Shown here piece after piece: positions 2,469 through 5,868 of a stretch of DNA of 5,868 nucleotides. The notes below the pieces were generated by a model that worked only from the letters and a program-made list of their open reading frames with translations, searched no databases and was not told where the DNA came from. Source of the DNA: a virus. Each line of letters opens with the position of its first letter. Within the stretch, counting starts at the first letter, position 1. Position numbers and translations under genes: made by a program. The stretch is taken from positions 1-5,868 of IMG/VR virus record IMGVR_UViG_3300045988_003943; one strand, written 5' to 3'.

Positions 2469-2858
2469 TCACACCCCCTTTCTGTATTTATTTTCTCGCA
2501 CGTCTATGTGCACAAAATTACTGTATCTGATTACTCCGCCGCCTAATTCGCCGAGCACCTTGCTCGCATATTCTGCCACCTCCTTGCTATTGTGTTTTTT
2601 TACCACAATGTCGGCCGCCATGCCTTTTACATGATAGCTGTTTTTTGCACCGCCTACTTTTGCGTTCCATGTTGGTGTTCTGTATCCTGAATTGATGATT
2701 ACTGGTTCGTTAAAGTGTTCTCTGATTCTTTCTAAGACTGCGAGTAGTTCAGGTGCCCACAAAAATTCTTTTGTTCCGTCTTTGCATCTAAACTCTTCTG
2801 CTTTGAAGTGCTGCGTTAATCGGTCGTTGTTTGTTTGGTTTAGGATTGCTGTACTCAT
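2469..2858 (-). CDS. Peptidase M15_3 family (zinc D-Ala-D-Ala carboxypeptidase-like) cell-wall hydrolase, putative lysis enzyme (129 aa from ATG 2858; the ORF track starts 3 codons earlier at GTG 2867)
   Basis: The sequence ...FLWAPELLAVLERIREHFNEPVIINSGYRTPTWNAKVGGAKNSYHVKGMAADIVV...GGGVIRYSNFVHIDVR carries the M15 signature: SGYR, then N..VGG, then S.H..G.A.D (H and D zinc ligands), then FVH.D (third His). ATG at 2858 is preceded by SD AGAGGTGG at 6-nt spacing. There is no signal peptide and no TM segment. Confidence 0.8.
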   Translation of the reverse strand: MSTAILNQTNNDRLTQHFKAEEFRCKDGTKEFLWAPELLAVLERIREHFNEPVIINSGYRTPTWNAKVGGAKNSYHVKGMAADIVVKKHNSKEVAEYASKVLGELGGGVIRYSNFVHIDVRENKYRKGV

Positions 2859-2879
2859 TTTGACCACCTCTTGTTTGTA

Positions 2880-2907
2880 TTTTATATTTTTCTGTTCGCT
2901 TTGTCAA
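2880..2907 (-). promoter_or_regulatory. Candidate sigma70-type promoter on the minus strand: -35 TTGACA (2907-2902), 16-bp spacer, -10 TATAAA (2885-2880), pointing into the M15 gene
   Basis: Perfect -35 hexamer and a 5/6 -10 hexamer at canonical spacing in the AT-rich region. The predicted TSS at about 2872 is just upstream of the M15 SD. It lies downstream, in the transcription direction, of the terminator at 3353-3321. Confidence 0.4.
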
Positions 2908-2957
2908 GGTTTTTTGTAAAAAATTTTGGCAAAGCAAACAGATGCCCGCGGCAGGCG

Positions 2958-2995
2958 TTTTTAACATTTTCCACAGACTTTTCAACATTTCCACA
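2958..2995. repeat. Iteron-like direct repeat copy A TTTTTAACATTTTCCACA (2958-2975) plus partial copy TTCAACATTTCCACA (2981-2995)
   Basis: Motif TTTTTAACA-(A)-TTTT(TT)-CCACA recurs at 3062-3082. The CCACA/TTCAAC/CAACAA submotifs recur through 2958-3140. Confidence 0.7.
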
Positions 2996-3061
2996 TTGTT
3001 AAACTTTAGCATAACAGAGTGCTGCCGTATTGGTGTATATTCGTTTCAACAATTCAACAAC

Positions 3062-3082
3062 TTTTTAACAATTTTTTCCACA
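3062..3082. repeat. Iteron-like direct repeat copy B TTTTTAACAATTTTTTCCACA
   Basis: Near-identical to copy A at 2958-2975, differing by 1-nt and 2-nt insertions. It is preceded by the tandem CAACAATTCAACAAC. Confidence 0.7.
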
Positions 3083-3180
3083 AGTTTTTTACTAAAAAAA
3101 ACGCATATCTTCGTTGTAAATTATTGCTTTTCAACTTTTAAACTGTCTCTACTACTACTCCTACAACAAGTATATAAATA

Positions 3181-3248
3181 ACACGCATGTGTGCGCGTGC
3201 GCGCGCGTGCGCGTTTCGTGCGCGTGTGCGCATGTGCGCACATGCGTG
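3181..3248. repeat. GC island of two perfect alternating purine-pyrimidine tracts (34 nt at 3181-3214 and 32 nt at 3217-3248), predicted Z-DNA-forming, with 10-bp terminal inverted repeats
   Basis: acacgcatgtgtgcgcgtgcgcgcgcgtgcgcgt / tt / cgtgcgcgtgtgcgcatgtgcgcacatgcgtg. RY alternation is strict within each tract, broken only by TT. CACGCATGTG (3182-3191) is the reverse complement of CACATGCGTG (3239-3248). GC is about 65% against about 25% in the flanks. It contains TGCGCA x2, CATG x3 and GCGCGC. Confidence 0.9.
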
Positions 3249-3254
3249 AAATAA

Positions 3255-3281
3255 GGCAGCCCCTAAGTTAGGGGCGCTGCC
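3255..3281. repeat. GC-rich hairpin (~11 bp stem with a 2-nt bulge, 3-nt loop)
   Basis: GGCAG-CCCCTA-agt-TAGGGG-cg-CTGCC. Outer arms 3255-3259/3277-3281 and inner arms 3260-3265/3269-3274 are complementary. CTAGGGG at 3283-3289 is an alternative partner for CCCCTAA. Confidence 0.7.
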
Positions 3282-3288
3282 GCTAGGG

Positions 3289-3312
3289 GTGTGTCGTGAG
3301 ACACACACTTTT
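3289..3312. repeat. Hairpin GTGTGTC-gtga-GACACAC followed by TTTT
   Basis: 7-bp stem (3289-3295/3300-3306), 4-nt loop, then acTTTT at 3307-3312. This is terminator-like on the + strand only, and there are no + strand genes. Confidence 0.6.
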
Positions 3313-3320
3313 GATTTAAT

Positions 3321-3354
3321 AAAAAACTCCATACCCTAAAGGCATGGAGTTTTA
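3321..3354 (-). terminator. Rho-independent-type terminator hairpin (bidirectional) downstream of VP4
   Basis: Stem AAAACTCCAT (3323-3332) pairs with ATGGAGTTTT (3344-3353), with an 11-nt loop containing an extra CC/GG pair. The minus-strand RNA reads AAAACUCCAU-loop-AUGGAGUUUUUUAUUAAAUC, a stem followed by a U6 run. It lies 60 nt after the VP4 stop. The GC core is only 6 bp, so strength is moderate. Confidence 0.5.
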
Positions 3355-3364
3355 AATCTTATTT

Positions 3365-3412
3365 TGTCATCAAGCCAAGTACCCGCCTTGTCAGGTACTT
3401 GGCTTGATGACA
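3365..3412. repeat. Perfect 19-bp inverted repeat (hairpin with 10-nt loop) abutting the VP4 stop codon
   Basis: tGTCATCAAGCCAAGTACC (3365-3383), then spacer cgccttgtca, then GGTACTTGGCTTGATGACa (3394-3412). The right arm ends 2 nt before the VP4 TAA at 3414-3416. It would be a very stable stem-loop in virion ssDNA and in mRNA. Confidence 0.9.
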
Positions 3413-3413
3413 C

Positions 3414-4430
3414 TTACATAGTTCCGGCCATTTTTCTAAACTTGTGAATTTTACGTTCCTGCGCTGATAAATAGCTTTCAAGCTTAATATCTGTTTGTTC
3501 CATCTTGTTTTTGGTTGAATCCATGGATTTTTGTTGCCTTTGTCGTTTGATTTCCCATAAACGTTCGGGGTCTTCTGCTTCCATCTGTTTTTCAAAGTAA
3601 CGTGGTATTGCCGCTCTTTTACCGTTGCTTAGCTGAATGTAACCTTTTTCCCAGATCTCTTCTTTGTGTTGTAGATAGTATTCTTCACCTAGACCCGGCT
3701 TTAAACTCATCATTGCGAATGGTGGCCTTAATCCTCTTTTGATGTGCTCCATGGTTTCATCACCAATTTTTTTTGTTACATAGCCTGCCGTGTAGCTGTA
3801 TGCTTTGTTTGTCGCTGGTTCGCTCATGTTGTGGATACCATACGGCCAGCATTTTGTTATGCGTGTGTCCGTGTAGTATCCTTCTTTGCTGAGTAGTCTG
3901 TACGGCTCTAGCTTTTCTGGATTGTAATTGAACAAAATCAGATGATAGTGCGGTCTCCCGGTGTGTTCTCCGTATTCACCAGCACAGAAATAGCGTATTC
4001 CCGGCCCTGCGGCCTTTCTGAGACGCTTTAGAAACTTCTGAATGTCCTCATACCATAACGTCTGATTCTCCTTTAAATCGCCTTTCTGCCGCTTGTAGAG
4101 TGCTCCGCGTATTACTTCGCCTGTTTCGTGGTTAACGCCCGGTATGTTTTTATCATCATATGTTAATGTGACAAACCATACTGAGTGCGGTTTACTTGTC
4201 TTTGCTTCCATTTCAATTCTGCAAGCCCAGTCTTCTCTTTTGCGGATTCTGCACCCGATGCATTGCCCGCATGGAATTAGCATAACGTCTTTTCTGTAAA
4301 TTAAATCTTCATAGGTTAAATCAGGATTTTTTGCCCTTTCAACGGCAAAGCGCCGGAGCGTGTAAACACGTCCCGACGCTTCGCGGTCGTCTGGCACATA
4401 AAACCTGATAAGAGGTTTATAACATGCCAT
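3414..4430 (-). CDS. VP4: VP4 replication initiation protein (rolling-circle HUH endonuclease, 338 aa)
   Basis: Motif I is WFVTLTYDD (FuTLTu). Motif II is the HUH motif PHYHLILF. Motif III is YSYTAGYVTKKIG (catalytic Tyr followed by K). There is an N-terminal Cys cluster PCGQCIGCRIRKREDWACR. The start ATG overlaps the VP2 stop as TAATG, and the stop is TAA at 3416-3414. Confidence 0.9.
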   Translation of the reverse strand: MACYKPLIRFYVPDDREASGRVYTLRRFAVERAKNPDLTYEDLIYRKDVMLIPCGQCIGCRIRKREDWACRIEMEAKTSKPHSVWFVTLTYDDKNIPGVNHETGEVIRGALYKRQKGDLKENQTLWYEDIQKFLKRLRKAAGPGIRYFCAGEYGEHTGRPHYHLILFNYNPEKLEPYRLLSKEGYYTDTRITKCWPYGIHNMSEPATNKAYSYTAGYVTKKIGDETMEHIKRGLRPPFAMMSLKPGLGEEYYLQHKEEIWEKGYIQLSNGKRAAIPRYFEKQMEAEDPERLWEIKRQRQQKSMDSTKNKMEQTDIKLESYLSAQERKIHKFRKMAGTM

Positions 4431-5344: not shown

Positions 5345-5868
5345 TTAGTGATGGTCGATTAAGCCGGGAACGGAATACATTGGCATTGGCCTTACGGTTG
5401 TGTTTTTTACAAGGAAGTCTGCGATAAACTGTGGTTCGTTTACCTTGTCTTCAACGGCCAGAGTTCGCGCGATTTCTGCACTTCCTTCTTTCATCCACTC
5501 TTGACTGAGTGCCGGTGTTTTGGTGTAGTTGTCACCATAGTGCCAACTGTCCAGCGTTCCGGTCGCATTGGATCGGAACGCACCACAGATGCGGTTTGGC
5601 TTCATGCGATAATCCGCCCACGCCTCTTGGTAGCCAAATGCTTCGTTGTCGGTTTCCGTGCCCTGTGCATAGAGTTCTTTTTTCAGTACTGCTTGCTCTC
5701 CCAGATTTGCGAAAACAGGGAAATAATAGTCCAGCTTGTTTTTTCTGCTGAACATGCGTTCCAAACCCTGCTGGTATGTGTGGTCATGGCGTACACAGCA
5801 TACGCCAATAACAAAGCCGTGCTCTTCGAAAGATTTTGTAAAAGCGCTCTTGCCAAAGCCTGTGACCG
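5345..5868 (-). CDS. VP1: Major capsid protein VP1, C-terminal part (stop TAA at 5347-5345); bases 5814-5868 duplicate 1-55
   Basis: The frame is open from the window end down to TAA at 5345-5347. Translation reads ...FEEHGFVIGVCCVRHDHTYQQGLERMFSRKNKLDYYFPVFANLGEQ...GYQEAWADYRMKPNRICGAFRSN...RPMPMYSVPGLIDHH*, a typical VP1 C-terminus. It joins in frame to the 1..1250 segment, giving 572 aa in total. The ORF track start at 5764 is only an internal TTG. Confidence 0.9.
   Translation of the reverse strand, partial: VTGFGKSAFTKSFEEHGFVIGVCCVRHDHTYQQGLERMFSRKNKLDYYFPVFANLGEQAVLKKELYAQGTETDNEAFGYQEAWADYRMKPNRICGAFRSNATGTLDSWHYGDNYTKTPALSQEWMKEGSAEIARTLAVEDKVNEPQFIADFLVKNTTVRPMPMYSVPGLIDHH
5814..5868. 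repeat. Second copy of the terminal redundancy (duplicate of 1-55)
   Basis: Identical to 1-55. Confidence 0.95.

Follow-up and report, generated by a model that had tools for sequence, protein, structure and literature searches.

A non-coding region of a gut gokushovirus that pairs a candidate rolling-circle nick hairpin with a module resembling bacterial chromosome origins

The window, the whole 5,868-nucleotide (nt) stretch of DNA analyzed here (IMG/VR record IMGVR_UViG_3300045988_003943), is a circular gokushovirus genome of 5,813 unique nt plus a 55-nt terminal duplicate, and it carries a long non-coding region between the stop of its VP4 (Rep) gene and the start of its M15 peptidase gene. 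We lean toward reading this region as a modular one that controls both replication and transcription, rather than as one complementary-strand origin. Its best-conserved elements are a hairpin next to the VP4 stop, here called H, which is probably the rolling-circle (viral-strand) nick origin of the Gokushovirinae, and an AT-rich module, here called E, which looks like the part of a bacterial chromosome origin (oriC) where host DnaA opens the DNA. The coordinates of all features are collected in Table 1.

In the mechanism that we infer from the observed sequences, conservation, covariation, geometry, orientations and strand asymmetries, every protein-DNA contact is conditional. By analogy with phiX174 and with hairpin-loop plasmid origins, VP4 Rep would nick the loop of H and so start and end rolling-circle synthesis. 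E would act on the double-stranded replicative form, where host DnaA may bind the array of same-strand 9-mers, extend from the proximal tandem pair of boxes onto the CTA/GAT trios, and melt the adjacent AT-rich end. Opening near H could then help H to extrude and be nicked; alternatively, the opening might load the host helicase, with the replicative form being copied like a small chromosome. An alternating-tract palindrome and a GC-rich double hairpin, interchangeable cassettes that fold preferentially on the H strand, may prime the complementary strand. Finally, a terminator would close the VP4 transcript and a consensus promoter would restart transcription beyond E, leaving E in the gap between the two.

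Gokushoviruses are among the most abundant phages of guts and oceans, and to our knowledge their replication origins have been unmapped so far. With its covarying stem and invariant loop, H offers a precise target for nicking assays across the subfamily, as well as a sequence marker for the origin-bearing strand. If DnaA acts on E, small single-stranded DNA (ssDNA) phages can co-opt the host initiator, and such a dependency would bear on host range, on carrier states and on the opening of rolling-circle origins.

A hairpin next to VP4 as the probable nick origin

The 19-base-pair (bp) perfect inverted repeat abutting the VP4 stop, which a previous sequence-only reading of the window had pointed out, is present (arms at 3365-3383 and 3394-3412), and the hairpin that it forms reaches z = -10.5 when folded singly and compared with shuffled sequences. 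Hairpins of this type, with a CTTG loop and a TGACAC flank, are common to the Gokushovirinae and were found in 234 genomes. When 37 diverse copies are aligned, each of the six stem pairs scored has compensatory changes, CTTG is invariant (37/37) and TGACA is conserved in at least 90%. The classical isolates Chp2, phiMH2K and SpV4 have H on the coding strand, with the loop (C)TACTTGAT or TACTTGTT and the 3' flank (G)TGACACC. The same strand bears H in 52-54 of 80 environmental genomes, a set of phiMH2K-like gokushoviruses gathered by a VP1 search seeded with phiMH2K VP1, the search seeded with the window's VP1 having yielded close relatives only. In the gut clade, H lies 5-40 nt beyond the VP4 stop, its stem varying in sequence and its loop being conserved (CCTATCAAGTAAGG on the coding strand, that is, TACTTGATAGG on the opposite one). 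Its orientation relative to VP4 is constant there, antisense to the genes in 102 of the 102 copies detected.

The family loop, TACTTGATA, matches the cleavage site of the phiX174 gene A protein, CAACTTG^ATA, and it is this match that makes H the probable nick origin. The shared stretch is ACTTGATA, 8 nt of the longer site CAACTTG^ATATTAATAAC, and the phiX174 record has the viral-strand origin annotated at 4306, inside CAACTTG/ATA. The likeness extends to the cognate enzyme, VP4 being an HUH Rep with paired catalytic tyrosines. Moreover, H is conserved across phages of very different hosts, which fits a site for a phage Rep better than a host-specific priming site. There are also differences from phiX174, whose site lies inside gene A and without a hairpin, whereas the gokushovirus motif is presented in a hairpin loop, as nick motifs are in many HUH systems. 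Among the double-strand origins of rolling-circle plasmids, those of the pC194/pUB110 type contain CTTGATA, and the nick sites of pT181 and pMV158 lie in hairpin loops. A further difference is that the gut-clade motif is antisense to all genes and so does not share their sense. The literature that we searched contained no demonstration of cleavage for any gokushovirus.

Sequences like the H loop were also seen outside H. On the - strand at 3163-3176, within the conserved end of E, the sequence TACTTGTTGTAG is nearly identical to the H loop that phiMH2K has (CTACTTGTTGTAA) and to that in several environmental genomes (CTTGTTGTA); this motif is on the coding strand in the window and antisense in the orientation classes B and C described below. 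Within the putative unwinding element, it may offer Rep a further site to recognise or to nick. In many relatives (L013, L017, L024, L026, L046 and L047), the loop motif occurs once more without a hairpin, as (C)TA(C/T)TTGATAGACTGAATAGACTGATACATGG on the motif strand about 60-70 nt 5' of H, and its counterpart in the window is weak (CTTTTGATTTAAT at ~3307-3320).

Element E is the most conserved part of the region

When the region alone was used as a BLAST query, the hairpins aligned only in close relatives, and the AT-rich middle aligned far more widely. This middle, element E, is the most conserved part of the region, with about 70% identity in 50 GenBank gokushoviruses, where it carries no annotation except "hypothetical protein" in two records. 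It aligns at 68-86% identity in genomes for which just 25-50% of the DNA aligns overall, and the number of gut gokushoviruses that share it at about 70% identity is well above 150. A 23-nt pattern drawn from E was found in at least 120 IMG/VR contigs, all of them microviruses of 4-6.2 kilobases (kb) except for three chance matches in Thr-rich genes. Among 56 clade genomes picked by capsid VP1 similarity only, 51 carry E, as against 0 of the 80 environmental gokushoviruses. We found no E in plasmids; of the matches in bacterial genomes, three are chance hits to Thr-rich coding repeats and one is a microvirus contig mis-binned into a bacterial assembly. Each genome has exactly one copy, always beside VP4 and H (a second match in relative L129 is its terminal duplicate), and the internal order of E is strongly conserved in the alignment.

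The direct repeats that the sequence-only reading had noticed in this AT-rich segment follow the pattern TTYMACA, with about 10 copies, all on the + strand. The family repeat consensus is TTTCAACA, with TTTCCACA in 13% of copies, and each E contains on average 8.2 copies of TT[CTA][AC]ACA on one strand and 0.5 on the other, spaced 8-12 nt apart. The only two perfect matches to TTWTNCACA in the window's genome, both TTTTCCACA, lie in E at 2967 and 3074. Of the 23 near-boxes in the genome (at most one mismatch), 6 are in E, all on the + strand (binomial P = 1e-4).

Bacterial chromosome unwinding systems consist of a DnaA box (TTATCCACA), often in tandem, a spacer of about 4 bp, at least three DnaA-trios (3'-GAT-5') and the unwinding site; the published rule allows at most two mismatches to TTATCCACA (at most four in the second box of a tandem) at 0-16 bp upstream of the trios on the same strand (PMC8287927). 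In C. difficile, three DnaA boxes precede the trio sequence CACCTACTACTATTACTACTA, 5'-CACCTACTACTATTACTACTATGA-3' (PMC7561715), and a Bacillus chromosome reads TTATCCACATATCCACAGGACCTATTACTATTACTACTA, with the trio CTATTACTATTACTACTA, and then turns AT-rich immediately ahead of dnaN. At its 3' end, E has the same layout, the family consensus reading TTTTCAAC, TTTTCCACA, NNCN, CTACTACTACNNCTAC and then the AT-rich AACAAGTTATATAATA. The proximal box is most often TTTTCCACA, one mismatch from the DnaA box, and at the fixed offset 69 of 130 copies have at most two mismatches. The trios are invariant in the family, and there are at least three consecutive ones with the central A on the bound strand. 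In the window, the (CTA)3 at this place is the only one in the genome, with 0.026 expected from shuffled sequences. Beyond the trios, from +15 to +45, A+T averages 70% in the family.

In its same-strand 9-mers upstream of at least three CTA trios and then AT-rich DNA, E thus looks like the bacterial oriC units of B. subtilis (incC, DnaA-boxes #6/#7) and C. difficile (oriC2). Compared with the Bacillus sequence TTATCCACATATCCACA-GGAC-CTA, the box offset of 8 nt, the spacer of 4 nt and the strand relation are all as in E. Unlike bacterial oriC, however, E lies in a 5.8-kb ssDNA phage and not beside dnaA or dnaN, and its dominant repeat is TTTTCAACA rather than TTATCCACA, in a dense array spaced 8-12 bp. 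Several mobile replicons recruit host DnaA via boxes, among them lambda, P1 oriR, pSC101 and F, and a DnaA-box hairpin can serve an 'ABC primosome'. Origins of the lambda, P1 oriR, pSC101 and F type pair a few DnaA boxes with the iterons of their own initiator, and we know of no phage or plasmid DnaA-box origin described with the unit of box, spacer and trios. Our literature search likewise turned up no paper on DnaA-trios in a phage origin and none that connects Microviridae with DnaA boxes.

Orientation and exchange of element E

Among non-redundant genomes, 128 could be classified by the arrangement of VP4, H and E. In class A, which has 100 genomes and includes the window, VP4 is followed by H and then by E with its CTA strand antisense, at a median E-H distance of 104 nt. 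Class C (25 genomes) has E on the sense strand, H a median of 29 nt later, and then VP4; judged by eye, the H motif is antisense to the genes here as well. In the three class B genomes, E is sense and comes downstream of both VP4 and H. In 125 of the 128 genomes, those of classes A and C, it is the AT-rich end of E that is turned toward H.

One rearrangement can be seen at close range. Positions 1253-1466 of MG945388 (L004) correspond to 2947-3177 of the window, and between flanks that are 85% identical this relative has an E that is only 69% identical and in the opposite orientation. A diverged, inverted copy between similar flanks points to E being exchanged as a module, and in this case recombination seems to have replaced the module, a simple inversion being the less likely event. 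In MG945388, the GC alternating tract adjoins the repeat side of E. An element that occurs in either orientation, between a terminator-like hairpin and a conserved promoter, fits a function on duplex DNA and not a signal of one strand.

Hairpins between E and H and transcription signals

The GC-rich and alternating sequences that the sequence-only reading had described between E and H were recovered in full. Two perfect alternating pyrimidine/purine tracts of 32 nt each (3182-3213 and 3217-3248) make up a palindrome that folds to -35.6 kcal/mol on the + strand (z = -4.1) and to -26.7 kcal/mol on the - strand (z = -1.5). This palindrome adjoins E in 84 of the 100 class A genomes, and on the H-motif strand its opposed bases, summed over 83 genomes, form 1361 Watson-Crick, 371 G.T and 7 A.C combinations. 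Next to it, the two GC-rich hairpins (3256-3282 and 3289-3306; z of about -4.2 to -4.6) form a double hairpin that occurs in 9 of 138 genomes, always on the H-motif strand, with covariation in the second stem. Other lineages carry different inserts at this position.

Stable non-coding hairpin clusters are also what G4 oric, the phiX174 PriA (n') site, the filamentous-phage (-) origin and the plasmid origins ssoA, ssoU, ssoT and ssoW present, and the middle hairpins share with known complementary-strand origins a rolling-circle replicon context, strand specificity and the character of lineage-variable cassettes. They are plausible as the remaining candidates for a complementary-strand origin. 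They differ in that none of the sequence signatures of those origins was found in the region (the ssoA CS-6 motif TAGCGW is absent from 2859-3413), and the best-conserved elements, H and E, belong to another type.

The hairpin at 3323-3353, with TTTTTT after it on the - strand, agrees with the terminator proposed from the sequence, although a simple terminator scan did not list it. Because its wobble pair sits on the - strand and the T-run follows, it suits a terminator of the VP4 transcript, and it could act in both directions. On the far side of E, the proposed promoter is also there, TTGACA-17-TAAAAT on the - strand, and in 92 of 131 relatives this strand has an equivalent promoter (at least 10/12 positions) past the repeat side of E, compared with 9 of 131 for the other strand.

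Weighing the alternatives

Several observations weigh against reading H and E as a rolling-circle origin assisted by host DnaA. The H loop of the window (CGCCTTGTCA) has drifted, reading CCTTGTCA against the phiX174-type motif, and of the family motif it keeps the CTTG core alone. Against TTATCCACA, the proximal boxes of the window, TTTTCAACT and TTTTAAACT, show 3 and 4 mismatches, and against TTWTNCACA 2 each, so that under the published limit of two mismatches the family consensus falls within the rule and the window's genome outside it. Most repeats have A at position 6, where the DnaA-box consensus has C (TTTTCAACA and TTATCCACA differ at two positions), and the AT-rich stretch of E is short, about 18 nt, less than in Bacillus, with the GC-rich alternating tract coming next. 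In 3-6 class B genomes, it is the repeat side of E rather than its AT-rich end that faces H, and the orientation counts are phylogenetically non-independent, with only a few rearrangement events behind them. Lastly, nicking of the H strand by VP4 would put the rolling-circle fork on a head-on course with transcription.

The sequence-only reading had assigned the whole hairpin cluster to the complementary (-) strand origin, read on the packaged strand by host primase, PriA or RNA polymerase, which we regard as possible but doubtful. The folding that it suggested as a check does give stable structures: folded as ssDNA, the region has z-scores of -7.9 (- strand) and -10.3 (+ strand), 0 of 100 shuffled sequences matching its stability, and each hairpin alone also exceeds its shuffled controls. 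Equivalent regions exist in relatives and are non-coding there. The palindrome and the GC double hairpin fold better on, or occur only on, one strand, and the middle hairpins vary by lineage, as do the interchangeable single-strand origins that rolling-circle plasmids carry. Firmicute primases prefer to initiate at the triplet CTA, and the CTA run of E lies 5' of the palindrome. However, such an origin leaves the best-conserved parts unexplained, namely H with its Rep-type nick motif and E, which is largely unstructured in the folds and whose occurrence in both orientations makes a signal read on single-stranded DNA unlikely. Nor did Rfam or the CS-6 scan of the region find any known single-strand-origin signature. 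What holds from the earlier assignment is a replication-related control region; its extension to the entire cluster is not supported, with the middle hairpins staying in play for complementary-strand priming and the 19-bp repeat being better read as a rolling-circle origin.

Other explanations concern E itself. Its TTTCAACA repeats might serve as iterons bound by VP4 or by a small DNA-binding protein of the phage, forming the binding half of the rolling-circle origin or a copy-number or regulatory site, with the likeness to DnaA boxes being coincidental. Rolling-circle plasmid origins typically have an array of direct repeats next to the nick site. The conserved CTACAACAAGT in the end part of E contains the CAACA core of the repeats once more, and the reverse strand at this place (ACTTGTTGTAG) resembles the H-loop variants CTTGTTGTA of phiMH2K and others. 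Most repeats, moreover, depart from the DnaA box at one of its consensus positions. Nevertheless, we consider the iteron reading unlikely, as E remains about 70% identical while VP4 falls to 34-50%, which favors a conserved host partner over a phage protein, and as box offset, 4-nt spacer, trio sequence and AT-rich end jointly match oriC closely. The segment whose repeats were termed "iteron-like" in the sequence-only reading matches the bacterial oriC layout of DnaA boxes, DnaA-trios and AT-rich DNA and occurs in both orientations. We give still less credence to E as a transcriptional element, be it upstream activating or bent DNA, a DnaA-regulated operator of the late promoter, or the promoter of a small, structured antisense RNA at 3182-3357. 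The T-tracts of E are spaced 8-12 bp, a TATAAT-like sequence follows the trios in many relatives, E lies about 60-90 nt before the VP4 start in class C, the G.T pairs of the palindrome would be G.U pairs in + strand RNA, and the terminator-like hairpin could act bidirectionally. Yet a properly spaced -35 element is missing, the AT-rich part that follows AAGT is variable in both sequence and register, the downstream genes have a consensus promoter of their own in classes A and B, and no Rfam family matches. Least credible of all are a mobile-cassette origin of E, selfish or neutral (as a miniature transposon or as debris left by recombination), and a small protein gene concealed in it. Its two orientations and two genomic positions, the inverted copy in MG945388 and a 79-codon open reading frame (ORF) spanning E in the window would suit these readings; but there is one E per genome, always by VP4 and H, bacterial genomes and plasmids lack it, its internal order is strongly conserved, and the reading frames across it shift or break among relatives and have no Pfam match.

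Strand asymmetry and the packaged strand

Compared with the classical isolates Chp2, phiMH2K and SpV4, all detected members of the clade have H and its flank the other way round relative to their genes, and the base composition is asymmetric as well. The coding strand is extremely A-rich and T-poor over the whole genome and clade (L144-L199), with 36% A and 18% T overall, and at four-fold degenerate sites on that strand the clade has about 41% A and 10-16% T, unlike the T-rich coding strands of Chp2 or phiX174-type genomes. The AT skew at these sites averages +0.56 in the gut clade (n = 54; standard deviation 0.07) and -0.21 in environmental genomes with a sense H, 73% of which have T>A; Chp2 has -0.34. 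Three mutually unrelated environmental gokushoviruses that lack E have an antisense H and A>T at four-fold sites (L213, +0.76; L253, +0.28; L261, +0.15), and the skews of inverted-H and sense-H environmental genomes differ (Mann-Whitney P = 0.003). The strand bearing the H motif thus tends to be the T-rich strand, as expected for a strand that spends time single-stranded.

Taken together, the inverted H, the T-rich motif strand and the G.T bias of the palindrome suggest that the gut clade may package the strand antisense to its genes. Against this, phiMH2K is an exception, with a sense H and yet a skew of +0.30; codon-usage effects may contribute to the skew; and antisense packaging would set replication head-on against transcription. 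We also considered the orientation of E as what sets the polarity of the packaged strand, and rejected this because the base skew is equal in the 'same' and 'anti' classes. A broader scenario, which we put forward tentatively and hold to be more probably wrong than right, is that the gut clade and a few unrelated environmental lineages package the strand complementary to mRNA sense, making them "negative-sense" Microviridae, and that the clade acquired a DnaA-box/DnaA-trio module that would open the replicative form beside the inverted origin hairpin or would allow mini-chromosome-like replication in a carrier state. In any case, the inverted H and the strand asymmetries call into question the assumption that all Microviridae package the coding strand, and the answer affects how strand-specific viromes and mutation biases are read.

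Gene content and limits of the region

The recognisable genes of the window, identified by gene map and Pfam, are all on the - strand: VP4, VP2, VP1, the VP3 scaffold, VP5 and the M15 peptidase. In GenBank, its nearest matches, with about 85% identity, are microviruses from pig faeces. M15 peptidase genes of gut gokushoviruses were acquired horizontally, with closest homologues from Faecalibacterium (PMC3394797). Together with promoters of the TTGACA/TATAAT kind, the peptidase gene points to a Firmicute-type host. The 55 nt at positions 1-55 are repeated exactly at 5814-5868, which is the assembly signature of a circular genome and not a biological repeat.

From the VP4 stop (3414) to the peptidase start (ATG at 2858 behind GAGGTGG, or GTG at 2867), the region measures 546-555 nt, about 9.4% of the genome. 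The sequence-only reading had called it unusually large and non-coding. It is non-coding and large for Microviridae generally, and it is of ordinary size for the gut clade: by the rough measure of the largest ORF-free gap, the median is 441 nt in the gut clade and 204 nt in environmental gokushoviruses, a measure that is unreliable for the window itself since spurious ORFs fall inside the region. ORFs within 2859-3413 had no Pfam match, and no reading frame there is conserved in the alignment of relatives. A scan of the region for transfer RNA and transfer-messenger RNA found none, and no Rfam family reached its gathering score. The Rfam hits to mir-297, mir-3149 and mir-466 at 3179-3251 scored 46, 36 and 30 bits against gathering scores of 85-100 and are artefacts of the alternating CG/TG hairpin. 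Literature searches returned no description of these elements.

Table 1. Features of the non-coding region and neighboring genes, in window coordinates
Feature	Positions	Strand	Details
Whole non-coding region	2859-3413		between VP4 (Rep) stop and M15 peptidase start
Promoter, sigma-70/sigma-A type	2879-2907	-	TTGACA-N17-TAAAAT; 11/12 consensus positions; faces peptidase and late genes
AT-rich imperfect palindrome	2891-2942		25-nt arms, 84% complementary; z = -4.9, -5.1
Element E, AT-rich oriC-like module	2955-3181	+	distal box clusters, proximal pair, spacer, trios, AT-rich end
Distal DnaA-box-like repeats	2958-3082 (2958-2995, 3043-3082)	+	two clusters; six sites with at most one mismatch to TTWTNCACA
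Proximal tandem box pair	3128-3144	+	TTTTCAAC/TTTTAAACT, degenerate here; family consensus TTTTCAAC/TTTTCCACA
Spacer, proximal box to first trio	3145-3148	+	GTCT, 4 nt; length agrees with average of 4 bp in PMC8287927
DnaA-trio-like repeats	3149-3163	+	CTA CTA CTA CTC CTA; 3'-GAT-5' on lower strand
AT-rich E end, putative unwinding element	3164-3181	+	CAACAAGTATATAAATAA, 83% A+T; reverse strand TACTTGTTGTAG
Alternating-tract palindrome	3182-3248	+	two 32-nt tracts; 32-pair hairpin only on + strand, via G.T pairs
GC-rich double hairpin	3256-3306	+	GGCAGCCCC..GGGGCGCTGCC, then GGGG and second hairpin
Terminator-like hairpin and T-run	3317-3353	-	13-pair stem, one G.T; -10.9 kcal/mol, z = -6.7; then TTTTTTATT
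Hairpin H	3365-3413	+	19-bp stem; loop CGCCTTGTCA (3384-3393); 3' motif TGACAC (3408-3413)
M15 peptidase (M15_3)	2469-2858	-	Pfam E = 1e-26; strong GAGGTGG ribosome-binding site
VP4 Rep	3414-4430	-	PF23343, E = 4.6e-19; HUH motif HYHLI; paired tyrosines YTAGY
VP2	5332-4430	-	gene map
VP1	spans circular junction	-	gene map

Two further candidates were rejected. A XerCD dif-like site was sought by eye only and gave no convincing match, and Spo0A boxes (TGTCGAA) differ from the repeat complement TGTTGAA at a consensus C. Between the two distal box clusters of E, the window has a 22-nt insertion, GCTGCCGTATTGGTGTATATTC, at 3021-3042 that is absent from all aligned relatives, and the first 11 nt of this insertion are complementary to 3250-3260, just beyond the alternating-tract palindrome. 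The AT-rich imperfect palindrome at 2891-2942 overlaps the -35 element of the late promoter and is common to some relatives (L002, L009 and L010); it could be an operator, or a duplex promoter mimic on single-stranded DNA.

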